From assembly GCA_051362555.1 (NCBI GenBank), contig CM120648.1, positions 13,450,587 to 13,514,586 of the forward strand: DNA of 64,000 nt, read 5' to 3'. The DNA comes from Lingula anatina. Taxonomy: Eukaryota > Animalia > Brachiopoda. The notes beneath the pieces are model-generated. The model ran no database searches and was not told where the DNA came from. It was given only the letters and a program-made list of their open reading frames with translations. Position numbers and translations under genes: made by a program. Shown here in pieces: positions 900 through 31,547 of this stretch. How positions within the stretch are numbered: the stretch's first letter is position 1; each line of letters starts with the position of its first letter.

Positions 900-2700
900 T
901 GTTCTGTTATCGACTTCAAGTACCTGAGAGGGCACGACGGGCCTTACAGGGCGCTGTTTTAAATTGGAGGTAGAGCATACTCAAGCAATAAATAGCCGTA
1001 AAACACAAACTCACGTTGAACATCAAAACTTTATTAGAAAACCTATATCAAAGTTAACACTGACTGTAATTTAGAGTATAGTAACTGACAGTGCTTTACT
1101 TATTTGTCGATTATATCAGATATTAACGGCAACTGCACGTGAGGGAGAAGACGAGGTTTTCACAGTGGTACATGTACCTGGTAGTTTTCTTGATATCCGT
1201 AGTTAGTAGTGCCGATTATTTACGACCATAAAGTTCTACCAGTCCTTTCTTATGGGTAATTTATGAAAAATTGCATATCATGCCGTAAATAAATAACTGT
1301 GTGCATTCTCCTTCCACATACGAAAGCGACGGCAATCAGAGCTCCCGCCATCTTGGATAAAATTAGTTATGTTGTATATAAAAAAAACGATGTGCGGAAA
1401 CAAATACTACACACCAGTCAGCATAAAAACAACCCAAGCAATAAATGATTCAGAAAACAAGTACCATTTATCCAAAAAATATCCATTTCATGAGATAAAT
1501 AACCTTAATTCAATTTATTTACATCTGAATGAGTTCGTAGTTTAGCAGTCACCGCTACTGCGCATGCGCAGATGGTCTTTTTCGCGTAATTTTAGCGTTG
1601 ATTGTTTTTAATGTAATTTAACCATTTTGTGTTTTGAAAAAAATTTTATTTCATTTTTTGGTACCTGAATATATGCTGTAAACATCTTGTATAGCCATCT
1701 TACATAACTACGTCGGCCATACGAGTTATTTGTCAGTGAATATGGGGTTACCTGAACATTTTATATAGAAAAGCATATGGGAGAAAAATTTCAGGCTTAA
1801 ATATAAAACACTCTAAAAAATTAATTATTTTAAATATGCAACTTCTCGGGCTCAATTTATTAGTTTTTAGCATAGTTCTTCACAGTAAATTAAAAGAAAA
1901 CAAAATCTGGGAGGGTCACGTTCCAATGCCCCTATGTTATTTTTCTGATTCTTACAGAGACTGGTACTAATTAAATGTTCCATTGAAACAGCAGTGCTGA
2001 GATCCAGCAAAAGTTAATCAAAAAGAAAAATATATGTATAACAATAAAAAAAGAAAGAATATAAAATTGTCTTTTATGTAACAATTATATTCTCAATTAA
2101 TGTCAAAACGAAAAATCTAATGATATAAAAACTTTGACGCAGGTAAGACTGCGGCGCGCTTCACATGACCGGATGTAGCAGTTATGTATGCACTGCGGAC
2201 CTTCCTTGACCTACATACATTGTTCATCGTAGCAGCGGGAACACATTACGCGTTATGAAATAACGTTATTCCAAGGACAGGATATATATATATACGAGTT
2301 TCCGTATGAAGCAATAGGACATAATACGATTCCTGCATACTTTTTGTGCGTGCAAAGACATTGATGACAGAAATGTGAGTACTTTGTTGGAATGATCTGG
2401 TACCGGAAGTCAGGAGTGATGAAAGCGAGAGTTGGGCGGGGTTGTGAAGAAAAAGAACGAGGGAGAGAGAAGAAGAAGAAGAAGAAGGAGCTGCAGAGAC
2501 AAGAGCTAGATGATAGACCAAGGGATCCAGTGTCACTTGTACGGTTTATTCTGCTTGAACCATCCGTCCTGACCGATTGTACACGTAGCAGACACGTGTA
2601 TGAATAATGAACCGTTCCGTGAATGATCCGTTGTTATTCACCTGTGCATTGACGTGGCTTGTTCGTTTCCCACCTCATTATATATTTACTATAGTGGGGA
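900..2700. promoter_or_regulatory. CpG-rich promoter-like island
   Basis: CpG visibly more frequent than in the following 28 kb. YY1-type CCGCCATCTTGG at ~1345, NRF1-type TGCGCATGCGCA at 1559-1570, ETS-type CCGGATGT at ~2169 and CCGGAAGT at 2403-2410. Some of these motifs may lie in TE remnants. Confidence 0.5.
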
Positions 2701-2989
2701 TATTTCTAGCTAAAATTCATCTGTTAATACAGAATTTTTAATTGATAATTTTGATACAGAATCAGCGTCAAATTACAGTTCAATGCTTGGATGAACCTAC
2801 CATGGATGGGCCGTTGTTATTTAGCTGTTGGCCTTCTACATGTATAATTGTATTGGTTTTACTTGGCTAGTGTGTTGATATGGCCACCTGAGAGAAATCG
2901 CAGTAGAGGTGAACAACTATAAGATATGAATATTTCTAAAGACTATGCTTGAATATGCACTATGTTCTCAGCAGTGTATGTTTATTTAA

Positions 2990-3326
2990 AGGGATAATAC
3001 CTCTTCGTATGAAATCTGTATTTCACAATAAAAACATTGTGAATGGCTCATAAAAATATAATATATTCTGTTTTCCCACAAAAACAGCTGTTATAGCTAT
3101 TATTCTGATATCTGAGCTTGTCTTTAGACCACGTGACCTCCATTGATGGCTATACTCTGTTAAAATCTCTTAAGAGATTTTAACAAAAAAACAAACTTTT
3201 TAGAAAAAAAACAGGGACTAACCTTGAATGTAAAAATGGATTCATTAACCATTGGTAAGTATGGGAAAATTGTTGTTTACTCCAGGAAAATTCATTTTTT
3301 GGCCGAAACAAAGAGTTATTATCACT
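2990..3326. mobile_element. Kolobok-type MITE, copy 1
   Basis: TTAA target duplication on both sides and TIR AGGGATAAT(A)ACTCTTCGT / (ac)AAAGAGTTATTATCACT. Nearly identical to 24212-24548. Confidence 0.85.
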
Positions 3327-3550
3327 TTAAGTAATAGAGATGGACCATATACACCAGAAGTCTCTCAGATTTGCCTGTGCTTCATGTGCAAGAGCAGAAC
3401 GGATGGTTCACGCTCTGAACAATTCATGCCACAATGGTGATCCTAGTGTTAAAAGTGATATAATATACAATTGGTTTCCTGGAAACATCTGCACGGTAAA
3501 ACATTAAAAGGACTAGCAGAGTCAAGTAGCAAATAAGGTATCTGTGACCC

Positions 3551-3730
3551 CATTCCCATAGATTTTAGATCGATCTATTCCTGTGGGGAGTCTCACTAGA
3601 TTACTGTCAGCTTAGCCGGCTTAAGCGTCTATCCTGCTTAAAACATTAACTATGTTGCACGCTAGGCTGACTGCAATTTAGAGTGAACCCCGAAGGAGTT
3701 AGGTCGATCTGAATCTCTGGGAATGCACCC
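3551..3730. mobile_element. Fold-back PIF/Harbinger-like MITE
   Basis: ~65-bp imperfect inverted repeats cattcccatagattttagatcgatct...gtcagcttagc / gctaggctgac...ggtcgatctgaatctctgggaatgcaccc. Confidence 0.7.
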
Positions 3731-4640
3731 TATTTTGTCCTTGGCTTACTATAAATGTTATTTGTGGGGATTATTTGCACTGTTCACCTTAGCACGAAAA
3801 TTTATGCATTAGCACTCCTATTGACGATTCTGATATGTACTGGCTGTGCAATACATATGGCTGTGCAGTACATATCAGATTCATCAGTAGGAGTGCTAAT
3901 GCATAAATTTTTGTGCTATGTTCACCTCACCTATCTTGTGCATTTATCTCTGTCTATTAGTCATAGCCTTCCAACTGGAGTGTAGTAATGGCTTTGCATG
4001 TGAGGAATTCATAAGTATGTAGCCAAGTAAAACAACACATTACTATGTACCATTCTTTGCATTTAATATAGAGTTCTGCCTCATTTTGAGGCATGCCAGA
4101 TCACTAACATTCACAATTACAACAAATGTCTCTCAAAATTTAGTTTACAGCGCCAATCTAAAATGAATAGAATGCAAAGTATGTTTGTTTTTCATTCATC
4201 GATTACGCAACATTCATCCCAAATGAACCTATATAGCTTTCTGCACATGTAGTTTGGTGACCTTAGACATCTGTAGGTGTACATTCAGACAGTTGTGACC
4301 AGTTTTGAGGTGCAGTTTTGCGCAGTACATATTTTCAATAACTATCACTGCATTTATTCAATGAAACTGATATCATTGGTTATTCAGTCTGTTTTTTTTC
4401 ATCAAGTCATGGCAAAATATCAGATGCATGTTAGTAATTCCTTGAAAGTACTAATAACTGTGAATACAAGGAAGCTGCCAAGTTTGACTTTGTCCTGGAT
4501 CACAGCCAGTTTAGACACAATATATTTACTTGTACTAGTAACACACTAGTTGTGATATTTGCTGCCTTTAAAGCAGTTATTTTCCAAAAATTTTGTTTAA
4601 AGAAATAACTTTCTAAATTTGCTGGGTGGTCCACAGACTG

Positions 4641-4797
4641 TAAGAGATTATTAATAAAAAACAAACTTTTTAGAAAAAAAAGGGACTGACTTTGAATGTA
4701 GGAATTGATTCATTAACCATTGGTAAGTATGGGAAAATTGTTGTTTACTCCAAGAAAATTCATTTTTTGGCCAAAATGAACAGTTATTATCCCTTAA
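4641..4797. mobile_element. Kolobok-type MITE, partial copy 3 (right half)
   Basis: Matches the right half of 2990-3326 and ends in gttattatccct followed by taaa. Confidence 0.75.
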
Positions 4798-5800
4798 ATC
4801 AGCAGTGGTCAAGCTCACACATATGGTCCGTTATATATAGTGCAGGCCTTGCGTCTCTGTAGTGGCCTGCTTGATGTGGTCAGTTTGGGATGATATGTAT
4901 TTGACCCAAGCAGTGGTCATTACCCACCGTCACCCATCACCATGCCAAAAACACCTTGCAGGTAAAACACAAAATACACCCTTAGTTTTGTTTTAGAAGT
5001 CATGTAACATCAGATTATCGTCTTCTACCCTTCCCCTGTAAGATCAACGAACCAGATATCGTATTTTGTTTTTCCTTAAAATTCTAAATATTTTTTTCAA
5101 TTTTCCCATGTTACTCCTCATAAAATGTACTTCAACAAGGAAACATAGGCAAATTTAACTTTGATCAGTCTGAGATTGTGACAGTTTTAGCAGTCACAAT
5201 TGTGTCCAGTAGCCTCCAAAAAACATTTTAAACTAGTCTCAGTTCCTTCACCCAGACGAGTCATGATTGCCTGAAGAGCTTGAGGACAGGCAAGGTTATG
5301 TGAGAATACAATAAATAGAAATAAATCGCATGTAAATTTGTGGAAATAAAATATTTAGTTCGGACCAGCACAGAATTAGGAGGACCTGCAGATTTCTTGT
5401 AAATGTACCATGAAAATCTGACTCCCCTAAAAGGTGACTTTCCAGTAATATTTTCATCATTTCATATTATGCATACTGCAAAATAAAAGTCATATACTCA
5501 AATCAAATAAGTTTTATGAAGTTTTGTGGGGGGGGGGAGTCAAATTTTCATGGGAGAGTCAAATTTTCATGGGAGTCGGATTATCATGTTACACAGTTCC
5601 TCTAGACCTTCAGTACCTCAAAGTTTTCTCCTTGTCTGGTCACCAGAAGTCTGATGACTGCAATATTAGGTTGGCATTTGGCAGTGAAAATTGCAGTACA
5701 CCGCAGTTTTAATATGTTGCTGGCTCCTGTCAAAGTTCTATCTTTTTAATAAAATAATTGGTGTCACTTCATTAATATAATCTTTTGTCTCTTTTTCCAG

Positions 5801-5980
5801 CTCCAGTCTCCATACAGCATGGTGTCTTCTAGGTGAACAGACTTTACCCGACTGAACAAGGGGAGCATGTATTTTTAATATGAATGAGACAGGAAATAGC
5901 AGCTGCAGGAATATCCCTTCATCTTACACAGTTGTGGAAGCCAGCAAGTTTCAGGATGAATGGGTTGTGAAGATAATCAG
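5801..5980 (+). ncRNA. Putative non-coding exon
   Basis: Strong acceptor tcttttgtctctttttccag and donor CAG|gtaact. Stop codons occur in all three frames. Confidence 0.5.
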
Positions 5981-7174
5981 GTAACTGGACATCTTGCTGG
6001 TAGTACACAAAATCAGCTCTTAGCTTTGAGTTACAGGTAACAGTGGGCTGATTGGTTTTCTCTCTTTCCTCTGTGGAGACACAATACCAATTTTCACAAT
6101 TTTTGGATTTGTCTTATTTTAATGTAACTTGAAAAGCATTGGTTTTTATAATAATCCACACTTTTTTTATTAAAAAAAACTTCATATCATAATGAGCATT
6201 GTAGCTTTATAGTCATTTTTGCCATTTTTTATTCACATCTTTCATTTGTTAACAGTGCATTTATTTAATTTAAACCATTAATCTTATATGCACAAAACAT
6301 GTACAATATGAATACTTCTATTAAAATATTGTCCATGTGCATTTTACTCTTCATATATAATGGCTGGAGGACATGTTCCTTTGTTGGCTGAAGTACTGGA
6401 TAATTATATTACTTATAAACTTCTGAGCATCAGTGGGCAAGTGGTTGAATGTCTTGTTTAATGAATGATTATTTTTCTAGTTCCACATACACAGTTTGAC
6501 AGTTTGTGTACATTGCCTTGGTAGTGGCCTGCTTGATGTGGTCAGTTTGGGATGAAATGGAGCAGTGGTCACTAGTTCCCTCGGATGACCGGTTGCCATG
6601 GCAGTAAATGGACTACTTATAGGTATTACACAAAAAATGGTTGATATTGTTTTACTAGTCATGTGACAATAGATTATTTGTTATCTTATCTGTAGAGAAT
6701 GAAACCGATTATCATATTTTTTGTTTTCTTTACATAGAGTAATTTGTCATGATAAGAATTTTTATTAGTAATTTCCTTAGTGACTTCTCTCAAATTGCTC
6801 CTCAGAAAATGTCTTCCAATTAATCACAGCCAATTGATATACTTATCCCAGATTTTTACAGTGTGCAAATTTCACAAAAATTTCAACAGATTTGGCAGAG
6901 TTCTGTTTATATAATTGTGTTCAATCTGAGTTTGTGCTGGTCTCTGCAGTCACTATTGTGCCCAGTAGCTTTCAAAAGGCAAAGGTCATTTTTAACTTAT
7001 CACAGGTCAATCACCACAACACTGATGTTTACCATATAAGATGGGCACTTGGCAGTTTACCATAGTTTTAATATTTTCCCAACTGGCTCTGGTGGACTGT
7101 CAGGTTTTTGTCTTTTCTTTTTATGAAAATATTTGCGTTCCTTCACATAAACATTGTCATTTCTCATTTTACAG

Positions 7175-7343
7175 CCCCAGCATGCATACAACATGGTGTT
7201 TTTGCCTTGTTGAACATGCGTGGAATGTATTTTATATGAAGTAGACAGGAAATGGCAGTTGCAAGAAAAGCTCTTCATCTCACCCAGATATGCAACACAG
7301 CAAGTTTCAGGATGAATGATTTGTGAAGAGCCATAGTAAACAG
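7175..7343 (+). ncRNA. Putative non-coding exon, paralog of 5801-5980
   Basis: Acceptor ttctcattttacag and donor CAG|gtaact. Both splice sites are retained in the two copies despite internal indels. Confidence 0.45.
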
Positions 7344-7742
7344 GTAACTGGACTTGTTGCAGGTAGCTCACAAAATGAACCTCTGGTTTATGTTTAGAAG
7401 TAAGAATGGGTTATTGGTTTTCTGTCTTTCCTCTGTAGAGAAACAAATATCAATAGTCAGGTGAATCATTAATAAAATAAATGATTCACTGCTTTAATTG
7501 TAATGTGAATTTAAGTTTTATAGTCATTAAGTACTTAAGTATTTGGTCCACACCCCTCATTTGTTAATAATTCATTTGAACCAATTCATCTGTACGAACA
7601 AAACATATAAAATGAATACTTGTAATATATATTTAATATATTTACCTATATTGTTCATGTGTAAGTAACTTCTTATACGTAGTGGCTAAAGGAACTCCAT
7701 GTTTTATTATTTGGGTAAACAGGAATGTTAACAGATCTGTAA

Positions 7743-7927
7743 AGGCGCATTCAGAACAGCGGACTAAAAGATCCGCGGATCAAATATGGACGACCCACTA
7801 GAATGCCTGTTGCGTAACACCCGCAGGGAATCTATTCTGTGTCCAATCGGGAATTAAGCGGCAAGCTTTTTAGTGGGCCGCCATATTTGATCCTAGGATC
7901 TGTTAGTCCTATGTTCTGAATGCGCTC
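7743..7927. mobile_element. PIF/Harbinger-like MITE
   Basis: TAA on both flanks and ~57-bp TIR ggcgcattcagaaca...atccgcggatcaaatatgg..cccacta / tagtggg..ccatatttgatcctaggat...tgttctgaatgcgctc. Confidence 0.8.
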
Positions 7928-8123
7928 TAACACTAACACTTAACATACCTGGAATTCTGACCTCACCCTGCGTACCGTAGCCTATGAACAGGGATTACCA
8001 TAGTGATCTTCAACTGTTGCTTACATGTTCAATTTATTTATGCTTTTTCCAAATAAAAAAAAAAAAACGCAATCACATGTAAATTGATATTGCAATATGA
8101 GCAGTATCAAGATATATCAAGTA

Positions 8124-8195
8124 CTCTGAAGTATCGAATAAAAGTACTGGATGGAATAAAAGTACTGGGCGGAAAAAACCTTTACACCACTCCCC

Positions 8196-8226
<31 letters not shown>

Positions 8227-9070
8227 AAAAAATGAAATAAATAAATAGTAAAGTAAAGTAAAGAAAAAGAAGAGAAAGAAAAAAGCTAGCTATTGATCAT
8301 TGTAAAAAAAAATTCACCAGGTAAAATTCACTCAGTATTATAATTTATCTTAAAAACGGGATATCTAATTTATTTTCAAAAAAAAAATATTTGCCATGAG
8401 TTAAATTTCATAATAGTCAGGGGCCGAAGACCCAGATATATCGCACCTAAGCCGCCTCCGAGAGCCATACGGAGACGTTATTCATACAAAATTTATTCTC
8501 AGATATAAGGTTCGTTTTGCATACCTGTAAACTCCTAAGGGTTTATCTTACATAGAAATGTGATTTAACATCGTTTAAATCATAAATCGGCATGAAATAA
8601 TTGACGTTTGAAAACAGACACAACTTCTTTGCTGCACTTGAAATGACCTCCTTAGCTATAAATATGATCCTATCACCTTGCGACATTGCATCATTCGATC
8701 GATATAGATGAGTAGTTGTCACTGCTGAAGGGAAAGCACGTCTATTTATAGGAACTGAAATCAGGTGACGCATGTACTGTTGTGTTCAGAGAGCGACTTC
8801 CGCTTGACCTACTTTCCAGTGCTGTTTGTAGAACAGTCGGTAATGAGTTGAGATCTCGATTTTCTTCTCATTATACTTCAATTTAAGAAAATAAAAAGCG
8901 TGACTTGTACTTGTGTAATTTCCCACCGGTACAATAGGTATTTAATAAACATACCGGGTGGAAGATTTTTGAAAAATTAATAAGCGTACTGGGTGAAAAT
9001 GGAGCGTACCGGCGGGAAGAAATTTGGGAAATTAATTAACGTACCGGTACGTTTATTTGATACTTCAGAG
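8124..9070. mobile_element. Non-autonomous DNA transposon with TA target site (Tc1/mariner-pogo-like)
   Basis: TA|CTCTGAAGTATCGAATAAAAGTACTGG ... CCGGTACGTTTATTTGATACTTCAGAG|TA with subterminal repeats. CpG-rich relative to its flanks, consistent with a younger insertion. Confidence 0.8.
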
Positions 9071-9232
9071 TATGGTGAAATAAAATAAAAAGCCTCCTAT
9101 ATTTGAATAAGGTATCATTAAAGGGTTCCTAGTAATAATTTGCACTATGATGTACGGAGGATACTAAAGGAAATTACAGATATTATCCAGTTACATTACA
9201 AACAGTAACACTCATTTCATTTATATTTTTAG

Positions 9233-9401
9233 CAAATACACTTCAGGAATTGTGTTAAGAGCTGCAGGCAGACCAAGAGGTCTGTTTTACACTGAGTGAG
9301 AGTGCTACCAGAACCACCCAGAACAAGACTTCCAAACACAATAGTTCCTGCGGAGCCAGTTATATGGAACAGTACAGTTACACAACAAATGTGGGTTCCA
9401 G
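9233..9401 (+). ncRNA. Putative non-coding exon
   Basis: Acceptor ttatatttttag and donor CAG|gtaaca. All three frames contain stops. Confidence 0.4.
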
Positions 9402-11571
9402 GTAACACAAAGAATCAATTTCCCCCGTATGCATGGAAACTGTTCGAGTAGAGGCAGCATATACAGCTAGGAGATTGTGTTGGACAATACTCCATCACTG
9501 AATAGACACAATGAACGTGTTTAAATGTGAATTGATATTTAAGTTCAGTTATAATTTGTTATAATAACTTTTCCCGCATTCGTGGAAACTGTTATAGTAC
9601 AAGTAGAGGCAGCATGTACAGCAAGATTGTGGTAGACTATAAGCCATCTCTGAAGGGAAAAAGGCTTCATTTAGATGTGAATATATATTTCAGCTCAAAT
9701 ATTATATGTTATAGATGATCTCTGATAGTGTGTGGTCATGATTTGCAATTGCAAATTTAATCGCATTTATTATATACAGACACTTGTGGTCTGTCTATAT
9801 TTTGATCATGGTATCTGTCCAGTGTCATCACCATATAGCACTTTGTGACTCATCTGTTGTTTACCCTATAACTGATAAACTGTATTTTTGTTGGAATTTT
9901 AATTTCTCTAGAAAATCAACATCATTATTTTATGATATTGTTTTGGTATCTTTAGCAGTTTGGACATGCTGCTACAGTATGTCCAGAGCATAACAAATTG
10001 AAGTAGCAATGTGGATATGTTTGTATTTTCGTCTGACTTTTTGTTTATGATTCTGATATTTTATCCAGTTACTAAATATCACCATTTTGTGAATTAATGA
10101 AATTATCGAAAGTTCATTGTCAAGTGATTTGTCTGGTGCATGGAAGGTTCCTTCATCTGATAGTCTAATGATGCCAGGGTCCAGTGGTTCAAAATGTTGT
10201 ATAGTCTGAGGCTCAGTGCTTGTAAAATCTGAAAGTACAATAGTGTATGGTGTAATATAGCGATTATAGGATCTGTGGAGGGCATTAATGTTTTTAATGA
10301 CTGACCATTACTCCATTATGCCCCAGCATGGGGCAGGTGTTATTTAATGGCTCTAATTTCATTGTTTCTTGAGCTCAAACATTAGGTTTTATGGTCTCGT
10401 GGCCTGCTGCTGTAAACATAAATAGTTATGTCATCACACACAAGCTATATTTAAAAAGATTTAAAAAAAAAACAGTAATTCCTTTCAATGAAGAATTTTA
10501 TTTGTCTGAATTATATGACATACATATTTGCATTCCCCAATAATGTAGGAGCATCTGTAATTTCTGAGACTGTATGAATGTCTTTAACAGAAAAAAAATC
10601 TGTTTGCAATATTTGCTATGATGCTTACAGCTTTCATGATAGATTTGTGCACATCTGATAGTTTTGTCTCATATCCTCTGGTCCTTTTTCATTTTTGACC
10701 AAATTTACTTATTTACAATTGGTACTGACAATGATCGCAATTCCTTGGGCCTTCAGTAAGAATGTTCTTCTTCTTTAAAACACTGTATGGTAAAGGTTTA
10801 GTAAACCGCTTGTTGATAATCTTTGCCAGTTTGTCTTTTATCTCTGGCCAACAAGATTCCTCTTCATCCTATTCAAAAGGCAAGGGATATAAAAATATTT
10901 TCCATGCCTAATTATTTTTTCAATTAACTTAGAAATCAAGGCAAACACTTTCTCGTCCCTTGCTATTTCTTGTTCAAGGCACTGAGCCTCTTGTCTCAGG
11001 CATAGATTCTCTTGCTGGACCCACTGATCCTCCTGCTGGAGGCGCTGGGCATCCAGCTCCTGCTGCTTCTTGCCAATGTTGTAATATTCGTCAAAATTTG
11101 GCCCTGGAAGTCTTCTTGTCTTTGGGTGGCTGACCACTTGTGGAGGGCTGACTCTCCTCCACATCTGCTGGCTTTGCTGAGGCCCTTCTCCTTTTCTGCC
11201 TCCTCTCTTTTTGTTTTGCTTCTGGCTGTCGTCTGCAGCCGCATTCTATTCAAGCACATCAGTGAGTTTTTGTAGCAAGTGGTCTCTTTCACTTACTTTT
11301 TCAGCTGTTCTTGATCTGTAAAAAACAAGGTGAAATGAATGTACTCCTAAACCCTCAGTCTATTCAACTGATGATGAATAAAGCATTTTACTGGCAAATG
11401 AAGTGTGTGTTTGTGTGTGTGTGTGTGTCCTGGTTAAGAACTTGGATTTCTGTTGTTCTGATGGTCTGAGGGTCAGTAACACCCTGGTCTCGATCTCCAG
11501 TAGCTATAGGGTCTTGGTTTGTTGGTTCTGTTGTTTTTGGCCTTGTACAACCGTTTTCCTTGCTCTGTAGG

Positions 11572-12558: not shown

Positions 12559-12799
12559 ATTACCTTCTCACTAGAGCCTTGAGTAAACCGTATTCTGTAT
12601 ACTTAATCCTCAGGTAACCCACTTGCTGTGAGATTGGTCTCTTTCAGATCTGTTGCTATCAGCTCCTCTTTTGTCTTTAGATTTCTGTGATACACCATTT
12701 TAGCTGTAAATGTGAGCAGATGCATTGCTTATGTTGCTGAATTTGCATGGTTCTTAACATATGCCTTTCCATTCTAAAACATTCTAAAACCTGCTATTT

Positions 12800-18478: not shown

Positions 18479-18602
18479 ATCAGCAACAGAAAAATATTGG
18501 ATGTAAAAATGGGTAAATAAGTATTTGGACAATTAAATTTTTACATTGGGAGATGTTAAGCTTATCTTTCCAAATATCTGCCTCTATTGATTCAAAGAGC
18601 AA

Positions 18603-20353: not shown

Positions 20354-20824
20354 AAATAATTAATTAACTTGATTTGATATGTTTGCAACAGGAAATGGTT
20401 ACAATCATAGCAGCAGCTCTATCACTGGCAAAAGTGAAGAGGTCTTTTAGGTTAATGCAGTGTTTCAAGAAAGTGTTCTATACTCACCTTGTTTCAGTTT
20501 GATGTACTTGAATGTTTTAACATTGCAACTCTCCCACCACTAGTTGACCAGCAGGGTTGATGACCACTGCACTGGGAGCCCATTTGCAATGGGGACCATA
20601 TCAAGGAAGTTTGTCTTAACTTTTCCTTTACTATCTGTATACCTAAGATGCAAGTGTTATAGTTTTTGATAATCAAGACAATTCTTCATTAGATTTTCAT
20701 GAAAGGCAGTCAGATTTCATTTTTATAATAAGTTGATAATATTTTGATCACAAGGGCTTATTCAAGTTATTTTAAACAGTTTTATCTTCACGGCATAAAC
20801 AGCATTATCAAGTCATTTTTCATA

Positions 20825-21010
20825 ATTACATGACACTATGCCCAACTCCTGTGTGATTCTGATGTCTGTGGCCTCATCAACCATCACACTCCATGCTGGT
20901 GTGCCCCTTAGCTCTGTTACCAGGGGTTGTAAAAGGGACTTGTCTATCAACTCGACCATTTCATCAATAATTTTGCAGCTGCAGTAATTGGTATTACTAC
21001 CCACCTTTAA
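20825..21010 (-). mobile_element. hAT (ZNF862-like) transposase fragment
   Basis: NTNYCS.KIIDEMVELI......RGTPAWSVMVDEATDI...QELGI contains the first catalytic Asp block, S.M.DE.TD. Confidence 0.8.
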
Positions 21011-21149
21011 AAAATTGCTGTACTGATAATTAATAAAAATTATGAATTTATGAAATGATTAAATATGTTGAATATACATCTGAAAATGTTTATTTTTTCC
21101 CAAAACTTGTATTGAAATTACCTTGCTTCAAAATAGGTACACCCACAAG

Positions 21150-21349
21150 TCAGTATTTCTTACCATGTTGATGTATTTCTCTTGTAATTCGGCTGCAATA
21201 AATCCTGCCTTTACCATATTAGCTGATTTTCTGTCTGTCATCCTCTTATCAAGTGTATGGACTGTGAGGATCTTTTTGGTGTAGTTTTCCATGAGTGTGT
21301 ATGTGCAATACTGTGCACTATGTCCAGGTGTGTCATTTCATCTATCACC
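21150..21349 (-). mobile_element. Kolobok transposase exon fragment (copy B')
   Basis: GD..NDTPGHSAQYCTYTLME..TKKILTVHTLDKRMTDRKSANMVKAGFIAA. Confidence 0.85.
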
Positions 21350-22949
21350 TATAAAACAAAGATTATTGTTATACCTGAAAGGCTGTAATGGAACCGTCCT
21401 GACCTTCTTTTCTGGTAAGTTCCATCTACAGAAGCAGATATTGTGTTAAACTTGACCCCCAACTCTCCCACCACTAGTTGACCAGCAGGGTTGATGACCA
21501 CTGCACTGGGAGCCCAATTTAAGATTGTTTAAAAACAATGCATTTATCACTGAATAATTACAGTTTTCTTAATCAACAAATGCTTCATTGCTTGTAGATG
21601 GTAGGAATCGGGCATTGCAGCATGGCAGTCACCTGTAATGAAAAGCATTCTGAACTTAATTCTACATATATTGTATGGGGCTTAAATTATTCCATGTTAT
21701 CAGTTAGTTTATTTATAGGTTATAAATAGTACCCTACTGTAACATATATATATATGTACATGCCTGGTGTAACACACGTAGTGCTAAGAAAGGAATATAG
21801 AGTCTTGTTGGGGTGATATATGTTGTTATTCTTCTCTTTTGTCTATACCAGTTGTAAAATACTCGTCAACGATGGCGGTTTTAACTGAAATAAAAAATTT
21901 AATTAATAAATAAATAAAATACTTAACTACTTTAATACAATAATTACAAAGGGAATAATCTAGAATGCTGTAATTGAGAAATCTGCAATAGCACAATATG
22001 GCACAATTTAGGCACCCAACATCTTTGAGACAACTAGCACAATTTGTGCAACATGAGACAGCAGAGAAAGCATGAGGTGCATTATTCCTTCAGAATATCT
22101 AACTGAGCATTAAACATGTTTTACTATAAAAATTCTACCACATAAGACAAGGTGTGTCATAAAAACCATTAAATTTCACAGCAAAGAACTAGTACAGTGT
22201 AGATAAATCAATTAAAATCAATGTGGGTCAAACTGCTTCTCAGTAAGCATTAAACTCAAAAACAAGCCAAAAACAACAATTCGCTTAACTAAGCGCATCT
22301 AAATTTCTCTCTAGTTACAAGAAATGACATTAAAAACAATTTTACTCACATTCCTGGTTGGACAGGGTTCTCAAAGGTTTACACCTGGTTTAAAAACTTC
22401 TGGGATTATGAAAACACGTTTTATTCCTCTCAAGAACAGACAAAGGAATGTGTTATGCTAGGAAATTTAAGCCCCCTCCAGGAATGTCATTCAAAGACAA
22501 TCAAGGGAAACTATTTTCTAGTTAATTCTTTCTGTCAGCTATAGGGGTCAGCACCTTGCAACCTACTTTGATTCAGCTAGCTAAATTTTGCCAGGTGTTA
22601 CACCTGGTATTGTAACTTTTTATTCAACATATAAAAATACCTCTTTTTGTAACTTTTTCCTAGAGTGCATGTTCTGTTGACTCTCAGGCAAGCTGTTCTA
22701 TGGTTGAGCCAACCTCTTCACTTCTGTGTTGAATGAAGTTGTATAAGATGGTTGGCAAGTTGACTGTTGATACAAAGTTATTAATCTCTGTGCCACCAAC
22801 CGATACATGTCTAATGTGCCGATGCGCAACTTAACCGCACGATCGGCAGAGGTATGCTTACCTGAAGTTAGGTGATGTGATTCTGTTGCTAGACAGCTAG
22901 CGTAGAGAAACAAGCTGGGCATGTGCAGGTGCTGTTTCCTCTTCCATTA

Positions 22950-23630
22950 CTACACCTAGCTATCCCATTATGAGCATCATTGACAGCCTCTACAATGTTG
23001 ATGTCTTTATCTTGTAATTCCGTCATGGCAGCAATGAATCCAGCCTTTTCCATATTAGCTGATTTTCTGTCTGTCATTCTCTTATCAAGTGTATGGACTG
23101 TGAGGATCTTTTAGGAGACATTGTCCATGAGCGTGTGGGTACAGTATTGTGTCATTTCTGCCATCACCTAAAAAACCAAGGATTAAAATTAAGTTAGTAC
23201 ATTAAAAAACTGTTTTAATGTTTATAAAAAACTGAATAACAATTTTTCAGTTGTACAAAAACAATCTTATTATTATAAGTCATAATTATGTAGAAAATGT
23301 AAACTAAAATGAACCTCAGTCTTTGCTTATTTATGTTTATACAAGAAATGCATTGCCTGAACTCATTAAAAATGACATACTAATTTGACACAGCCAATGT
23401 TAACAGAACATTTGTTTTTGCTACCATGCATATGAAAATCTTTGCCTACCTAAAACAACATCTTTTTCTCTCATTTCACCCAGCACCTGTCTCTGGTGTT
23501 CCTCCCAATACTTGTCAATAGTGGGTATTATGTAAGTCCTACAGATCTCCATGAATTGGTCAGCTGACGGGAATTTTACATTTACCATGTCTGCCCACAA
23601 AGACACCTTGTTATAGTTGTTTCTATAGTC
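22950..23630 (-). mobile_element. Kolobok transposase fragment: two exons with the intron retained
   Basis: NNYNKVSLWADMVNVKFPS...YIIPTIDKYWEEHQ..VLGEMREKDVVL, then gtaggc...ttttttag, then GDG...QYCT.TLMDNVS.KILTVHTLDKRMTDRKSANMEKAGF..AM.EL..KDI..VEAVNDAH.GI. Confidence 0.85.
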
Positions 23631-24211
23631 AGTATAGCTGCTGACATCAAAAAGTCTCCACTGTGAAGTCTGCAGTGAGATTGTCGTCTTCACTTTGTGT
23701 CCTGTCATTGTCTTTGGCTGATTCAGACTCTGCCCTATCAAGGAATGGTTGCACTCAAAGACTCAAAAAAACCATACTACAATTTTTTTGCAATTAGTCC
23801 CGGGTTAAACCATTTTTTTCTTAGACTAGTACCCTGATGCTAGTTTCAGGTGCTACCCAGCCACGCCCTCAATCTCAGAATCATTACTAACACTATGCCT
23901 CAGGTGTTTTGAGGCTTCTGCCCTTTTCCAGATGGTACATACATGTTCTGTTATCTGAGAACCCTTGTATTCCAACTTTATTGGTGACATCTAGCAATGG
24001 CTCTCTACGGTTGACCATGTCTTCCAGAACTTGATCATTATTAAATGTGCATCAAAGGGTGTTTGTATAATCTTGTGAAGCTTTATGTACTGCCAGAAAG
24101 AGATTTCAATAGTTGTTGGTAGTTGAAGTAACGAATTAGGATTAGCATGATTTTGTGTGACTGCAGTTACATCTCCCCACTCAGTGGTAACTTTGGGCCA
24201 CAATGACTTAA

Positions 24212-24548
24212 AGGGATAATAACTCTTCGTATGAAATCTACATTTCACAATACAAACATTGTGAATAACTCATAGAAATATAATATATTCTGTTTTACCA
24301 CAAAAAAGGCAGTTATAGCTATTATTCTGATATCTGAGCTTGTCTTTAGACCACGTGACCTCCACTGATGGCTATACTCTGTTAAAATCTCTTAAGAGAT
24401 TTTAACAAAAAACCAAACTTTTTAGAAAAAAACCAGGGACTAACTTTGAATGTAAAAATGGATTCATTAACCATTGGTAAGTATGGGAAAATTGTTGTTT
24501 ACTCCAGGAAAATTAATTTTTTGGCCGAAACGAAGAGTTATTATCCCT
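24212..24548. mobile_element. Kolobok-type MITE, copy 2 (perfect TIRs)
   Basis: TTAA|AGGGATAATAACTCTTCGT ... ACGAAGAGTTATTATCCCT|TTAA. Confidence 0.9.
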
Positions 24549-25844
24549 TTAATAATGATCAAATTCGTACTACAAGTCTACCTCCCATGCTGATTTCTTT
24601 TGGACATGATTTTACCTTGGATAGAGGGAGTAGGAGACTTCCCTTGGTACTTGAAATTTCTAGGGCCAAGCAATTTTGCTTGTGATGCCTTTTAAATAGG
24701 ACAAACATACCCATTATAATAAAGAATAAAAGAATTACTGAAAAGTATACTGTTGGCATCAACTCATGTGTTAGTACATTATACACCTCAGTTTCAAGGC
24801 TAGTTGGTGAGCTGGTGGTTGTACTACTTTGGTAAATGAAGACTGGAGCTGGGTTAGCTTTAACATGATTGCTGTGCTTAAAATTTTGATTTTATATGCC
24901 AAAGTGCAGAACATAAGATTCCCAAACAAGCAAGAGCCAAAGCAATATAACCTATTACATCATCTAAGGATATCCCACCATCCGGGGGGAGTTCTAAGTC
25001 AAAGAGTAGTAAAAGTAAAAGAAATTTAATCTTACCCCTAGTCTCCATCCCACCTTCCAGGCCATCAAGGGCTGGAATTCCAACATACATGTTTACGATG
25101 CTCTTCTTGGTTGGACTGAGTCCCTGGGGTGGTGGACCACCTCCAGTAAGGTTTCTGAACTTGTAATGTTGTGGTAATAGATACAAGAAAATTAAGTTTT
25201 AAGATCGTACTTGAGTGATACAACACTTGGGTTGCTCTATTGTTCTTCGTTGAGAGTGCTCCATGAAGATTTAAGGGAGTATTCCAGGCAGTGATACGTT
25301 AATTTTGCGGGTGATTTATAGTCTCTTAAATCATTGTCCCTTGGGTCATGAACCATACACTTCTCATATTGATTTTTTAAGTAAGGCCTATGTCTCTAGT
25401 GTCCAAATGTGTGTGATAGCTTTATCAGCCTGGTAGCTTTTTCTGTGCTATCACACATGTAACAACACCCCTCCAGCAGCTAGTGAACACAAAAGTTTCC
25501 AATAAACTTCTGTTGAATCACAAAATTGAATTAGGAGTTATAATTCCTACAAATTAGATAAAAAATAAAGCTGTTAGCAAGATTTTAGGTTATTTTGGAT
25601 CATCATTAGGGAAACTGTGGGCTAGGATGTGCAAGCAGAGTGAAAATAAGCAATTTTTTCAAACATGGGGGTAGGGATAAAAAAGAATGCTCGTAAATTT
25701 AGTTTAACACACAATATACCCATTTAAATTGAGTAAAAGACGAGTTGGATGTAATAATGTAACTAGACTATGATTAGCATGAAACTATCAATCATGGTTC
25801 ACTTAACAAAGGTCACAAGGTCAAAATAATGCATTATTTCTACA

Positions 25845-26145
25845 CATGTCAGTGCATCGGAGGCCGTTTGCAATATACACATAGTTAGGAAGAGCACATT
25901 CCTGAGAACAGGTACAAGCCTGAGTTACCGTCTGACCATCCATCCAGTCAATAATTAGCCTTTGCTGGGAATTTCGTCCGTTAATTTCTATCCTCTGCCA
26001 AATGGACTCAGAATCTCTGGGTCATTTTCCAGACATCTCTTCTTTATTGCTGCTTGATAGTTGGCATGCTGTGCGTGTTTAACCAAGCAGCCTTTGCATG
26101 ATAGCAGTTGGCTTTCTATCTCACCTTGTTTAGCACAAAATGTCC
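25845..26145 (-). mobile_element. Academ transposase C-terminal fragment
   Basis: FCAKQGEIESQLL.CKGCLVKHAQHANYQAAI.KRCLENDPEI.SP.GRG followed by IDWMDG and a Cys-rich tail. This matches the Academ LPP....L..H..RANYQA.IW...P.GW pattern. Confidence 0.8.
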
Positions 26146-26224
26146 AAGGATTTGTTTTGTCTCTCTGTTTAAAATCTGAGCGTAGGTTTTTTAATTTAGA
26201 GGGCCACAAAAAGAATCTATCTCC

Positions 26225-26700
26225 TCAGTCTTCCTTGTGACTGGGGATGGTACAGCCTGCTGATAATTTATGATAATGTCTGATATTTAGATTTTCTAGA
26301 AGCCATTCCACTTTTCCTTTGAATTCGTGTCCTTGGTAAGACTTGACAATGGCAGGATTACCAAACCCACGGAAGAGTCTTGAGATAATTAGGGAAATAG
26401 GCTTACTGTGTTTTGACAAACCTCGATATAGTTTGTTAATATTGTTAATCAGTTTTCTCGCCCCAAGCCTTTCGCAGATTTATAAGATTTCTTAATAATT
26501 TGCACCATGTCCTTTGGTCATATCACCTCTTTGTTTTCAAATAATGACCTGGCTTCTTTAACGGTGAACTTCTCTTTGTTCCCCAAAAAATTGGTAGTAT
26601 ACTCTCTTCTCATGAATGTTTGTTTCCCAATTTTTTCTTGTGAAAAGTCCCTTCCACCTCTTGTATGTCTCTTCATCTTTATTCATGTTAACTCTTTGGA
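26225..26700 (-). mobile_element. Ginger2/KRBA2-like integrase fragments
   Basis: KSYKSAKGLGARKL and K.S..ISL..SRLFRGFGNPAIVKSYQGHEFKGKV..LLENLNIR, a decayed FG.P...QSDQG.EFKG motif. Confidence 0.7.
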
Positions 26701-26974
26701 AGGTGTAGTTGTAGATGAAACAGTGTTAAAATTGCATACACAGTTAACTACAAGATTCAAGTTTTCAATCGTGTCTACATATCATCAAAAATATCCACTC
26801 TGTCCTGGCACTGCATGAACTGGCCATGTATGTTATGAAGCTCTTACTATGTATGCATGGATGATATTAATAAACCTGTAAAATCTGACATGTATACTGT
26901 TATTTAAGTCTTTAGAGATTCAGCACATATGAATATGATATAATGATATTTATTTCTTTAAAACTGCACTACAC

Positions 26975-27545
26975 TTCCGTCTCAGCTTGTGTTAGCTTGT
27001 GGTATTGCCAAGCTAAAAAATTTCTGTATGCAGCATGGCACATGGAGGCATTATCTTCTTCTCCTACGTCCCTGTCATTGTCACGACCCTCGTAATCACC
27101 CCTTATGACCCGATAAATATCCAGATAAAAAGGGTTCAAGATATTGAACTCCATAACCTGAAATAATATTAACAAGACCTCTGACTATTGTACTATGCAT
27201 ACCTATAATATATATATTTATGACCATATATGAAATCAATGTTGAATATAAAAAATGAGTAAATCACATTTTTAAATAACCATTGTAGTGAAGGTGTACC
27301 ACTGTTTGAAGACAATGACTGCTAACTTGTTCCAACACATAGTAACAATGGATAGCTAATTATTTCAATTATTATCATAATGGTATATAAGAGTAAAGGC
27401 TTCTTTGCTGCACAGCAACAATTTGTAATCAGAAATATATACAGGGTCCAGGCTTTTGTAGGTCCCAGGATGCTGGCAGCATTTCTTTTCTGGAGCAGTG
27501 GGCATTTGTCTACACTTCCCACAGACACACCAGTCTATCTGGTCA
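26975..27545 (-). mobile_element. Kolobok accessory gene KolX (P2X7 ballast-like) fragments
   Basis: DWCVCGKCRQMPTAPEKKCCQHP at ~27467-27545 and N.SMCHAAYRNFLAWQYHKL at ~26990-27060. Confidence 0.8.
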
Positions 27546-27569
27546 GAACATTCAACTTACCTAAAAAAA

Positions 27570-27895
27570 AACTTTTATCCAATCCCTCACCAAGGGCCTT
27601 CAACCTGTCATTTGCAGTTTGCAGCAGCACATGTTTCTTTCCCTCTAAATACTTAAGTATTTGCCCATTTCCTGGCACATTGAATTCTTCTCAGTCCTTG
27701 CATCTTTTATGTCAAATTTTAGTTCGTCCTGCATTTTTCTAATTAATCTCATTTCTCTCTCCAAAGCCTATAAATAACAAATCAACATATTCTTCACCAA
27801 ACAAAATTCACACTCAAAAACCTCCTGATTAGTCCTCTTCAATTTCATACTATCGCAAATTACATACCTCCAATTACAAACCACAAACTTTTTCC
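27570..27895 (-). mobile_element. Second, diverged Tx1/L1-like C-terminal fragment homologous to 13900-14310
   Basis: FVVCNWRYVICDSMKLKR...FECEFCLVK...LEREMRLIRKMQDELKFDIKDARTEKNSMC. Confidence 0.5.
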
Positions 27896-28340
27896 GTCTC
27901 GTCTGTTACGGGGGGTTGTGGATGTGAGGGGCCTTGTCCACTCTTGTCAACAATTTGGCTCTCTACATCCATAGCCAAGGCTGGACTTCTATCACAGCAG
28001 TCTAATACAATTTCTTCTAAGACATCTCTGGACAAGGATGACATCAAGTTCTATTAAAAACAAAAACCAAAACATAAAACAGTGTTTTAATATGTTAATT
28101 TTTTTGTTTCAATTGAATGAAATGAATTTATACCTTGTGAAGTTATATACCAACTTTCAATTGCTGTCTTTTTTGTTCTTTTATATGGAGAGCTTCTTGC
28201 TGAGAGAGAGCTTTAGGGAGATGGCTGCCGAAAGTTCTCTTCCTTTTGCAGTATACTGTCCTCTTCCTCTCCCTGGGGCCGTGGCAGTTTCTCTGCGTAT
28301 GGAGGAGCTTGGCACCAGTTCTGTTCTACCACCTCCTCGT

Positions 28341-28900
28341 CCTCTTTTTGAAGGTTTTCCTCTTTTGGCTATGGAGCGTCTTACTGGGTTTGCACTTGAG
28401 GTACTATATTGAAAATAGAAATAAAGGGGAAAAAAACTTGATACAATCATAAGAAGTCTATATTTGTAATCAAAAATAGTTTTCTTTAACCAAAACTTGA
28501 GAGTATGATCACTTATTTACCTGCTTGTGATTTAGAAGTAGTAAGCCTTATTATGGCACAAAATAATTAGTACCACCAGCATGTAAGCTGGCGGTACTCA
28601 TGGTCTTAGTCCCGACCTGTTAGTCTCTTCCTCTTTTTGGAGGTCTTCCTCTTTTAGCTATGGTGCGTCTCACTGGGTTTACACTTGAGGTACTAAATAG
28701 AAATAAAGAAAAAAACTTGATACAATCATAACAACACTATATTCGTAATCAAAAAAACATTTTCTTTAACCAAAACTTGAGGGTATGATCACTACTTATT
28801 TACCAGCTTGTGATTTAGAAGTAGTAAGCCTTATTATGGCACAAAATAATTAGTACCACCAGCATGTAAGCTGGTGGTACTCATGGTCTTAGTCCCGACC
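28341..28900. repeat. Tandem duplication (~280 bp x2), each copy ending in a HINE-type hairpin
   Basis: 28341-28617 versus 28630-28900, with hairpin agtaccaccagc-atgtaa-gctggtggtact. Confidence 0.85.
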
Positions 28901-29024
28901 CGTCTCGTACAGCTCCGCTGGCTCCTGCGGCTCTTGAGGCCAAGTATAAGCGTGTACTGTATAAGTGCAACAGCGCATATCTAAAAGAGAGCTCCGGATT
29001 CAGTGCTGCAAATTTTGACAAAAG

Positions 29025-29195
29025 TGAAGCTTCAGTGATTTGTCCCAGTGCTGTCAAGGTTTGTGAACCAGGTTCCAACCATTTCTTTTTCCTCCCTGCA
29101 TCAGGAGGTAATGTCCATGTATTTTTAGCTATCTCTAGATATCCAATGGTGTTCATTCTGAATATGGTGCATTGCACCCATCCACTTTGAATAAA
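29025..29195 (-). mobile_element. Kolobok transposase C-terminal fragment
   Basis: KWMGAMHHIQNEHHW followed, across a frameshift, by RKKKWLEPGSQTLTALGQI. Confidence 0.75.
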
Positions 29196-29589
29196 AAGGC
29201 TGTGTAGTTATCAAACACTTACTCTGATTCTGATTTCGACTCTATGTCCCTCAGCTTAATTGGAGGCAGTGGCTTTGAACTTGCTGTAGGAGTACTGGTA
29301 GATGTCTGGCATTAGGGGTCCATGTTCACATCGAACCTACCCGTACCCATCCCCAGACATCCACTGGTGGTCATTCTGGAGCATGGGGCATGCCCCCTCC
29401 CCCAACTTCAACTGAATGTAGTTTATAATTCTTAATGTGTTAAAAGTTTTTTCAGATAATAATCTCTTAAAGTATATTTTAAGTTTGAACTTAGTTATTT
29501 GAAATTTCCTTTTTTTAACATACTAACAAAAATATAGTAAGTGAGAACTTTGTCACTTTGTCTCTGATTTATAAGCAAAAATCCTGGTC

Positions 29590-29785
29590 TGTAACATCTG
29601 AAAATGTTTCTGTTCTTCTTTGCCCTCCAACGTTTGACAACAGGACAAAAGTTGAAGTCCCTTAAAGGTGGCCCTTCTATCATCACTGTGATCAATTCTG
29701 AACAATGTTCAGGTGAGAGACGGTTTCTGAGAGGTGTTGTGAGATGGTTCTGAGCAGAAAAAGCCCTCTCACAATCACTGTTTTG
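29590..29785 (-). mobile_element. hAT (ZNF862-like) C-terminal dimerisation domain fragment
   Basis: SDCERAFSAQNHLTTPLRNRLSPEHCSELITVMIEGPPLRDFNF..VVKRW..KKNR.I. Confidence 0.88.
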
Positions 29786-30874
29786 TGTTTACATCAAATT
29801 TGCAGTGGCGTGGTTACGTAAGAAGGATTTGCTTTTTTTTACAAATTTTTATGTATAGTTCTATAAATATTGAAAGATTCCTATTATATAACTAACTTAA
29901 ATGGTAAAATTGGTGACTTTGTGAATCAACTTAAGGCTGGACCCATCATTATATATTCATATTCATATATTATGTATTATATTTGAAAATTTTCATTACT
30001 GTCACAGAAACAAATCTCTTAAAGTCTATTGTTGCATTATGTTTTATGTTTTGTGTCTGTATATTTTGCCAGCTTTGCTGTCTAGTCTTGTGTTAGAGCT
30101 CATCTTATGGTTAGACCAAAGATAATATAGTAAAAGATGTCTGTAGGAATTTTGTAAAAGTAATATGCAGAAAATCATTTCTTTAGAATAAAGATTTTGT
30201 CACAAGTGTATTGAAGCTTTATGCTAGTATGTACACTGCTGTAGCAGTTGTAGTCTTTATATTTTAGTCTTTATAAAAGATGAGTATTTATTTCTGTCCC
30301 TTACTTTGTTATTTTTCTTTTACATTTTTTAAGTGCAATAGAATTAAAAGACAAGGCATTTTCTTATATTAAATATCCAGACATATTTATTGAGCTTGCC
30401 CAAAGTAGTGCTAAACAAATACTAGATAAACAAAGAATGATGACTGTTGTTAATGTCTGTTAGTAGTACCTATTGAATTTCCACTGGGTAATTCTGGAAT
30501 TGTGTTGAATCAAAGAATGTTTAGTTATTTAACTAAGCTCATTAGTGTGGAATTTTATTTAAGAGAAAGTGGGTCAAAGTTGAGTAGAGGCATAGATTAA
30601 GAGAGGTAAAAAAGCGAAATTAAGGACTAAGAAAACTTCAGACTCCTGTAGCTGTTGTTATATTTTCTCTCTCATGCCTCAGTGACATCATACAGTGCCT
30701 GGGTAGGGTGCTACACCTGCATGAAAAAACTGATGAAGGATACTTGATAAGTAAATATATTCTGATTTTTTGCCACTAGAGAGTTATTTTCACGCCAACT
30801 GTCATATTTAAGATATTTCATTTACACACATAACCCCATCCAGGTAATATGATGTGACTATGTTATTCATCAGT

Positions 30875-31103
30875 GCAGTGGGGATCATAGTTGGGTGTGT
30901 GTGTGTAGTCTCACATGGAAATCACTGAACACACTGTGGACATGATATACAGTGATGATCATAGTTGTATATGTGTCTGTAGTCTCATATGGAAATCACT
31001 GAACACACTGTGGACATGATATACAGTGATGATCATAGTTTTATATGTGTCTGTAGTCTCATATGGAAGTCACTGAACACTGTGGACATGATATACAGTG
31101 ATG
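30875..31103 (+). repeat. 74-bp tandem repeat, ~3 copies
   Basis: Unit gtagtctcatatggaaatcactgaacacactgtggacatgatatacagtgatgatcatagttgtatatgtgtct, starting at 30905, 30979 and 31053. Confidence 0.95.
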
Positions 31104-31547
31104 AGAGAGAGAACATTTTAAAAGTGGCTAACTAGACTCTTTGCAGTGAATTTTAATATTTTGTTTCCTTATGAAATATGTACAAAGTCCATATAAATTT
31201 ACATGGGGAATTTTTAATGCACAAATGTAAATAAAAAGCACTGTGCAAATGTTTATGAATACAGTTTCCAAAATTCTTTGGAAATTAAATTGAAAGTCTT
31301 CAATGTAGTTTTGTTATTATTTGTCATATTTGTATTATTTTAGGTAATTTTATGATTTTATCAACTATATTCATAACTTTCAAATTTAATGCATTTCTTG
31401 AAAATGTATTTGACCTTTGTTTCTCTTAAGAATTATCATTTCAACATTATAATGTATCAACCAACTTTAAATTATGAATAAATATTAAATATTATTATTA
31501 TTATTACTTGTTGTTTTATATGACTGTGGAAAAATATTTAGGTCTAA

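Follow-up and report, generated by a model that had tools for sequence, protein, structure and literature searches.

A candidate uni-strand piRNA-precursor gene with a spliced non-coding leader and an antisense transposon block in the brachiopod Lingula anatina

Among described clusters of PIWI-interacting RNAs (piRNAs), those of the slugs Arion vulgaris, uni-strand and densely packed with antisense fragments in the relevant passages of PMC11615739, and Deroceras laeve, unidirectional according to passages of PMC12506671, come close to a locus that we describe here from Lingula anatina, where fragments are likewise densely packed on one strand. The locus lies in a stretch of 64,000 nucleotides (GenBank assembly GCA_051362555.1, contig CM120648.1, positions 13,450,587 to 13,514,586 of the forward strand), hereafter the window, from whose first letter all coordinates are counted. 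The slug piRNAs have been sequenced, whereas the Lingula locus is known from DNA and long RNA alone; on the other hand, the slug passages make no mention of three features of the Lingula locus, namely its promoter region, its spliced non-coding leader, and its CpG-depleted domain. Clusters of the snail Lymnaea stagnalis share the type of content, with Kolobok and hAT elements enriched up to 108-fold, and differ in their enrichment of young elements and Gypsy, the Lingula pieces being mostly decayed; the word “strand” is absent from the main text of that paper (PMC6128900, cluster sections). This kind of defence locus is already known from slugs, flies, and mice; what is new at the Lingula locus is the RNA-supported spliced leader with low plus-strand coverage into the fragment block, besides a CpG domain that marks the span independently. 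Our literature search, which had the supplements of the mollusc papers outside its scope, returned no spliced-leader, CpG-depleted cluster in such an animal; those supplements may hold locus annotation.

The initial annotation had likened the locus to Drosophila flamenco. This stands for the layout, since a discrete promoter, splicing, one-strand transcription, and antisense fragments are shared with flamenco and flam-like loci. It does not extend to the definition of the class, for which the sections on flam-like loci in PMC10643416 give a bias driven exclusively by Gypsy, a size of 227 to 1085 kb, and expression in follicle cells, whereas here the unit is of about 30 kb (29.5 kb for the CpG-poor domain) and made mostly of DNA-transposon pieces. 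All confirmed pieces are of DNA-transposon type, in line with the earlier expectation of DNA transposons rather than gypsy elements, and the piece with rve and Ulp1 domains is a Ginger1 remnant. The Lingula locus is not a member of the flam-like class and is closer to the slug and snail clusters. Read-through clusters are reportedly present in mosquitoes. In piRNA clusters downstream of coding or non-coding genes (piC-DoGs, such as mouse Zim2, in the part of PMC11615739 concerned with them), a short abundant spliced RNA is accompanied by weaker read-through into an antisense block, as also seems to be the case here; the difference is that the upstream part at the Lingula locus may occur solely as the precursor's leader. 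As to size, clusters of 2.7 to 17 kb are given for other molluscs in passages of PMC11067994 and loci of <20 kb for an annelid in passages of PMC8915122.

We consider it probable that the locus is a uni-strand piRNA-precursor gene, in which a plus-strand spliced non-coding RNA runs into an antisense transposon block. To follow its transcription, reads from four of nine same-species RNA-seq runs, three stranded (X1, X4, and X6) and one unstranded (X7), were mapped to positions 1001 to 16900. The features of the promoter and leader are as follows.

2001 to 2750, plus strand: promoter region retaining CpGs (CpG observed/expected ratio [o/e] 1.12, change point at 2750); start site approximate
2281 to 2374, plus strand: exon 1a (donor 2375; eight X1 reads to 5801); 5' end inexact
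2440 to 2538, plus strand: alternative first exon 1b (donor 2539; nine X1 reads to 5801); 5' end approximate
2986 to 3335, no strand: dispersed non-coding repeat, also at 4641-4799 and 24208-24556 (self-BLAST; high depth on both strands, loose ends)
5801 to 5980, plus strand: non-coding exon B (AG acceptor, GT donor; junctions on both sides; X1 depth 25.6 versus 0)
6481 to 6623, plus strand: non-coding exon A (18 X1 reads 5980>6481, GT..AG); 3' end presumed
7175 to 7343, plus strand: second copy of exon B (72% identity including flanks; X1 depth 2.9 versus 0.03 in its bin)
9233 to 10600, plus strand: start of a long, apparently unspliced exon (acceptor 9232 read from the sequence; X1 depth)

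X1 showed a plus-strand spliced RNA without a recognisable protein-coding frame, arising at a discrete promoter region. Its junction reads (8, 9, and 18) have one polarity throughout, their first mates lying on the minus strand, and because the introns read GT..AG on the plus strand, this polarity corresponds to plus-strand RNA. The exon 1a joint appears as 2372>5799, with reads varying at the exon end. Depth in X1 was 6.6 for plus-strand RNA and 0 for minus in 2061-2590, and 25.6 and 48.9 in the main exon bins. Both the plus-strand spliced exons with closed frames and the transcription from the 2.2-2.5 kb region that had been predicted from the letters were therefore seen in stranded RNA-seq, with three X1 junctions and a longest open reading frame (ORF) of ≤61 codons in four spliced models. 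The promoter motif scan gave what we take to be an ETS-like site at 2403 and a GC box at 2434. At shared repeat sites (rows 1252, 3711, 7768, and 11912), X4 and X6 had the same polarity preference as X1; the leader was scarcely present in X4, X6, and X7.

Further downstream, the junction at acceptor 9232 was not among the X1 junctions shown, and a donor-like site at 9402 was passed unspliced by most X1 reads. X1 depth was 162 at 9351 and 141 at 9427, ca. 6 at 9.5-10.5 kb, 1 at 10.5-11.1 kb, and ≤1 beyond; there is no plus-strand AATAAA between 9117 and 11377, and the drop in X1 depth falls at 9.5-11 kb. With the tandem repeat left out, read pairs over 9481-16900 stood at ca. 33:1 in X6 and ca. 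29:0 in X1 in favour of plus-strand RNA (estimated from depth), and X6 covered 12 of 12 bins there at ca. 1.2 fragments per kilobase per million (FPKM), evenly across the block. For 12.7-16.9 kb, the plus:minus pairs were 25:1 in X6, 5:0 in X1, and 8:4 in X4. One-strand RNA over the block at 9.5-16.9 kb was found at low level in X6 and X1, two of the three stranded runs.

The leader itself arose long ago by tandem duplication of a unit of two exons (4780-6100 and 6440-7500), exon A being a duplicate of 4820-4961 in an alignment of both copies. The dispersed repeat at 4641-4799 occupies the expected acceptor position of the first leader copy, and the junction reads skip that exon. In addition, 32 reads join the end of exon B back to its start (5973>5791) with 20 to 38 extra letters, in several variants absent from the window, which points to expressed alleles or sister loci with more tandem exon B copies than the two of the window.

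In animals whose genomes are methylated in a mosaic pattern, CpG depletion usually marks gene bodies that carry methylation, and base composition outlines the unit independently of its content.

2750 to 32250, plus strand: CpG-depleted domain, putatively a methylated transcription unit (best two change points 2750 and 32250)

The CpG/GpC counts were 313/966 inside this domain versus 803/1047 outside (Fisher p 5e-28); both TpG and CpA are elevated within it. The change points, found without using the fragment calls, agree with the span drawn in the initial annotation. The CpG-rich promoter island proposed there was rejected as evidence: with a CpG o/e of 1.12 versus 0.94 upstream, the promoter does not exceed the background, and depletion simply begins at this point. 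The unusual feature is the CpG-poor body, at 0.33 (0.77 in 33-64 kb). Among the coding pieces the ratio varies from 0.13 to 0.71, and insertions at 7.7-9.1 kb reach 0.9-1.2; although the counts are small, such a spread would be expected if the sequences had arrived at different times. Two CpG-rich non-coding insertions in the CpG-poor domain, at 7720-7951 and 8280-9070, are probably recent arrivals.

The transposon fragments form a block from ca. 10.6 to ca. 29.8 kb and stop past 30 kb. Its start, first put at 12.8 kb, had to be moved to near 10.6 kb following motif reading and a minus-strand acceptor at 11316.

10600 to 11320, minus strand: DIRS-gag-like piece and Harbinger accessory-like exon (translation by eye, labels presumed; no Pfam family; acceptor 11316)
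12800 to 13470, minus strand: ISL2EU/Harbinger-type transposase remnant, frameshifted (HTH_Tnp_4 4e-8; DDE_Tnp_4 7e-6 and 0.015)
13905 to 14250, minus strand: coding exon without family assignment, copy 1 (copy 2 at 27545-27900, 73% identity)
14543 to 15515, minus strand: HECT N-terminal piece fused in frame to a low-complexity DIRS-gag-like stretch (PDB WWP1 match; gag label presumed)
15555 to 16800, minus strand: DIRS RNase H-like and L1/Tx1-like decayed pieces (by eye, labels presumed)
17607 to 18519, minus strand: Ginger1 remnant, C-terminal half of the integrase core and Ulp1 domain (rve_3 3.6e-6; Ulp1-like E 2.5e-3)
20560 to 21010, minus strand: hAT-like transposase piece (by eye, label presumed; no Pfam match)
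21122 to 23770, minus strand: Kolobok transposase pieces from two or more lineages, interleaved, with intron ends retained (PF20700 4.6e-5 and 0.14)
24562 to 26720, minus strand: envelope-like, SANT-like, Academ-like, and integrase-like pieces (by eye, labels presumed)
26972 to 27540, minus strand: KolX pieces (Kolobok accessory protein), intron end retained (P2RX7_C 1.6e-3; acceptor 27158)
28884 to 29230, minus strand: Kolobok (Kol0) transposase C-terminal piece (by-eye likeness to the C-terminal block of Kol0 rows in the PMC9587614 supplement; no Pfam match)
29600 to 29800, minus strand: hAT dimerisation-like piece (Dimer_Tnp_hAT E 0.099-0.12, within noise)

Every one of these recognisable pieces is antisense to the plus-strand transcript. 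We scanned all stop-to-stop segments of ≥42 amino acids in 2.1-32 kb against Pfam, treating both strands alike. Transposon families matched 6 of 129 minus-strand segments (DDE_Tnp_4 twice, rve_3, Mutator PF20700, P2RX7_C, and Dimer_Tnp_hAT) versus 0 of 148 on the plus strand, upholding the earlier claim that all recognisable transposon coding fragments are on the minus strand. Four of the six E-values were <0.002 and two were weak (0.015 and 0.099); the latter are within noise, since unrelated chance matches at E 0.003-0.1 were equally frequent on both strands (12 minus and 11 plus segments). The targeted searches (HTH_Tnp_4, a stronger PF20700, HECT, and Ulp1-like) covered minus-strand pieces only, chosen by eye, and the HECT, Ulp1-like, HTH_Tnp_4, and Ginger1 integrase plus Ulp1 pieces are on that strand too. 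None of the plus-strand segments of ≥38 amino acids contained a transposon motif when read by eye, and the Pfam scan of 2.1-32 kb had no reverse-transcriptase family match on either strand. For independent pieces at E ≤0.01, the count is 5 of 5 minus (two-sided p 0.06, computed by hand); adding the Kolobok pieces matched by motif makes it 9 of 9 (p 0.004; these pieces may stem from fewer insertions), and adding the presumed labels 24 of 24. With those labels and approximate bounds, the 24 pieces have a median of 283 nucleotides and cover 9.2 of 19.3 kb. In the control outside the span (segments of ≥45 amino acids, the receptor ORF described below excluded from the minus set), a transposon-linked family matched none of 141 plus-strand segments and one of 129 on the minus strand (PAX, E 0.028). 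The density is therefore ca. 24 short coding pieces in 19 kb of block versus one Pfam-detected piece in 34 kb outside.

The pieces confirmed by tools are ISL2EU-type, Ginger1, Kolobok/KolX, and HECT, with hAT weakly so. From the at least eight unrelated groups first claimed, these are retained; DIRS, Tx1/L1, Academ, and Ginger2-like had no tool confirmation, and we take the DIRS, L1/Tx1, Academ, Ginger2, envelope-like, SANT-like, and hAT core labels from motifs that no tool confirmed. In the first confirmed piece, which we presume to be of ISL2EU, the DDE profile lacks its first 16 and last 65 positions and is cut near profile position 93 of 158. The copies at 13905-14250 and 27545-27900 have a cysteine pattern and a charged coil, and both end at a minus-strand GT donor; their divergence is strongly codon-periodic, which alone gives no strand, and codon analysis of the duplicated pieces indicated a coding history in two pairs. 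An L1 tail was dropped as an identity for this pair, as a splice donor ends both copies. The HECT piece matched WWP1 in PDB (E 1.5e-5, residues 14-69 of segment 15059-15553), and the in-frame joint between HECT and gag-like parts in 15059-15553 (minus strand) is an apparent junction of two unrelated sources. The gag-like part of 14543-15515 retains CpG (o/e 0.71), and an atlas search with the DIRS-gag-like stretch was blank. For the RNase H-like piece within 15555-16800, PDB gave nothing relevant and Pfam no match.

Ginger1 elements have a Gypsy-like integrase followed by an Ulp1 or OTU domain (PMC2836005, passage on domain layout), and the piece at 17.6-18.5 kb has this layout. Searching with its integrase retrieved 80 loci, 31 of which carry an Ulp1 domain downstream in the same direction. 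The spacing between the two domains is 586 nucleotides here versus 649-2861 (median 1692) in those 31 relatives, shorter than in all of them, and the front of the integrase is missing. When the window was compared in six frames with the 80 related loci (tblastn), only the Ginger1 piece matched. Ginger1 elements also have terminal inverted repeats and a CCGG/CCGT target duplication; no inverted repeat flanking the piece appeared in the window self-BLAST, no dedicated search having been made.

The pieces at 21-29 kb appear to belong to Kolobok Kol0, judging from the first-aspartate motif and KolX. In 21122-23770, the first-aspartate exon occurs in two copies, 84% identical, and minus-strand acceptors lie at 21349 and 23168; by eye, the motifs resemble the Kolobok_1_XT, _BF, _NV, and Kolobok_24_HMa rows in supplement file 3 of PMC9587614, the same source noting in its KolX passage a similarity to the P2X7 C-terminus. 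In total, rows of that published alignment are matched, by eye, by three Kolobok pieces. A homolog search with the Kolobok piece 23424-23762 was blank, and the KolX piece 26972-27184 had no match in PDB. Protein searches with the Academ-like piece were blank and the atlas returned unnamed clusters only, at 0.92; the Ginger2-like (integrase-like) piece had nothing relevant in PDB.

Several pieces retain minus-strand acceptors or donors (11316, 13913, 21349, 23168, 27158, and 27560), so they derive from intron-containing genes copied as genomic DNA rather than as complementary DNA, and their minus direction is given independently. The shortened Ginger1 and truncated ISL2EU-type pieces fit a history in which elements inserted and were then partly deleted, although short fragments may instead have been captured as such. 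The sequence of events that we propose would begin with RNA polymerase II transcribing from the 2.3-2.5 kb region and the short leader being spliced. The CpG-poor span would be a single long methylated polymerase II unit ending near 30-32 kb, with the transcript reading on into the antisense block, presumably also beyond 16.9 kb. Transposons would have inserted as genomic DNA, with sense copies purged or antisense ones favoured, and deletions may have trimmed the insertions until only a few hundred bases of each were left. Cleavage of the long antisense RNA would then yield phased piRNAs with 1U, which could guide PIWI proteins in trans against Kolobok, Ginger1, ISL2EU, hAT, and others.

A number of observations weigh against a piRNA-precursor gene. 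Its piRNA output is deduced from DNA sequence and long RNA, and the RNA evidence over the block ends at 16.9 kb. X1 has only ca. 5 pairs over 12.7-16.9 kb, and the bias in X4 is not significant (ca. 13:8 pairs, p 0.38; 11:4 without the tandem repeat, p 0.12). An identity of ≥99% is reached by only 190 of 3,462 X1 reads, and certain mismatches are fixed, as in 126 of 126 reads at 9345; diverged alleles or sister loci therefore contribute part of the RNA signal. About half of the 19.3-kb block is without annotation and hence without direction, and seeing coding cores alone may reflect detection bias. The strand-bias data are confined to the 64-kb window, with no background from ordinary genes. 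Many fragments have stops and frameshifts, making their match to active elements uncertain. Plus-strand AATAAA is barely depleted (23 in 20.4 kb versus 44 in 31 kb), and the poly-T and poly-A runs (12 and 17) give no support either.

A possible, if rather unlikely, alternative is a long non-coding gene in which transposon debris builds up passively, either in the 3' read-through region or in a long intron, sense copies being removed as disturbing splicing or termination, with little or no piRNA. An antisense bias of long interspersed element (LINE) and long terminal repeat elements is established in mammalian introns (DNA transposons were excluded there, in the relevant part of PMC3088655), and in the polyA run X1 the depth goes from ca. 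49 to 6 to ≤1 over 9-11 kb, so the abundant RNA is short. Such a gene leaves unexplained both the crowding of ca. 24 pieces of many superfamilies into 19 kb, when 34 kb outside hold one, and the absence of any recognised sense piece; no plus-strand downstream coding exon was found in the Pfam scan or by-eye reading, most X1 reads leave the 9402 donor unspliced, and X6 coverage runs evenly across the block. We consider it very improbable that the antisense RNA pairs with transposon mRNAs and feeds the Dicer route of endogenous small interfering RNAs (siRNAs) instead of PIWI: the layout and RNA data suit any antisense mechanism, but minus-strand reads over the block are few and, in the slug data of PMC12506671 as far as its passages on small RNAs go, siRNAs are scarce and piRNA clusters unidirectional.

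It is just as hard to credit that the block is one composite mobile element or duplicated segment, for example a Helitron with cargo, behind an unrelated non-coding gene. The extra tandem exon B copies in the reads do imply that sister loci or longer alleles exist, but Rep or helicase families matched 0 of 277 segments, the flanks share no terminal repeat beyond one 15-base match, CpG content varies by piece (0.13-0.71), and the CpG-poor domain includes the leader and tail. A Helitron, which the initial annotation had named as a reading to be checked, was rejected for lack of a Rep-helicase gene and of shared termini. Least credible, and rejected as largely refuted, are exons of a minus-strand chimeric gene, for which several pieces do retain minus-strand splice sites but have stops, frameshifts, unrelated families, and plus-strand RNA over them, and a leader serving as a small nucleolar RNA or microRNA host gene unconnected to the block, for which the duplicated exon-intron units might speak but Rfam over 1.5-33 kb gave two matches, at 29.5 and 21 bits versus gathering thresholds of 83 and 65.

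The window as a whole has a G+C content of ca. 36%. Outside the unit it holds the sole intact gene found, a single-exon receptor on the minus strand at 49874-51100 (7tm_1, E 3.5e-11) in CpG-undepleted DNA, whose nearest named relatives are FMRFamide-receptor-like (brachiopod, 31% identity; nemertean, 29%). The LINE remnants just outside the unit (269-766 and 32340-32560) are plus-strand by presumed motif, as first described; the outside control is too small to show the contrast drawn between them and the block, a Tc1-like remnant outside being on the minus strand. This decayed remnant at 60199-61179, presumably Tc1/mariner-like (PAX E 0.028), is the sole transposase-type piece detected outside the block. 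A 1.4-kb element at 52761-54166 has inverted arms of ca. 460 bases at 73% identity and internal repeats (self-BLAST), and 38540-38750 bears what we take to be a resemblance to the head of a tRNA-derived short interspersed element. Local tandem duplications within the unit lie at 11572-12558 (488 x2), 28336-28900 (283 x2), and 30876-31104 (74 x3).

A more speculative and doubtful extension is a family of dedicated piRNA-precursor genes that would share a modular leader of tandemly repeated non-coding exons, with bodies forming a spacer-like library of short (median ca. 280 nucleotides) conserved coding cores from many superfamilies, in which CpG decay would record the order of arrival. If so, in invertebrates that methylate their DNA, genome sequence by itself could suffice to locate such loci and to date their acquisitions. 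For the piRNA-precursor gene itself, confirmation of the piRNAs would provide a complete gene model, from promoter region and spliced leader to antisense body and methylation footprint, for a piRNA locus directed at DNA transposons in what is probably a lophotrochozoan, a group whose clusters have so far been drawn mostly from small-RNA maps alone. Its compact size and single promoter region would make it amenable to promoter deletion, and it would bear on whether selection shapes loci of this kind or whether they are traps that arise from chance insertions and deletions.

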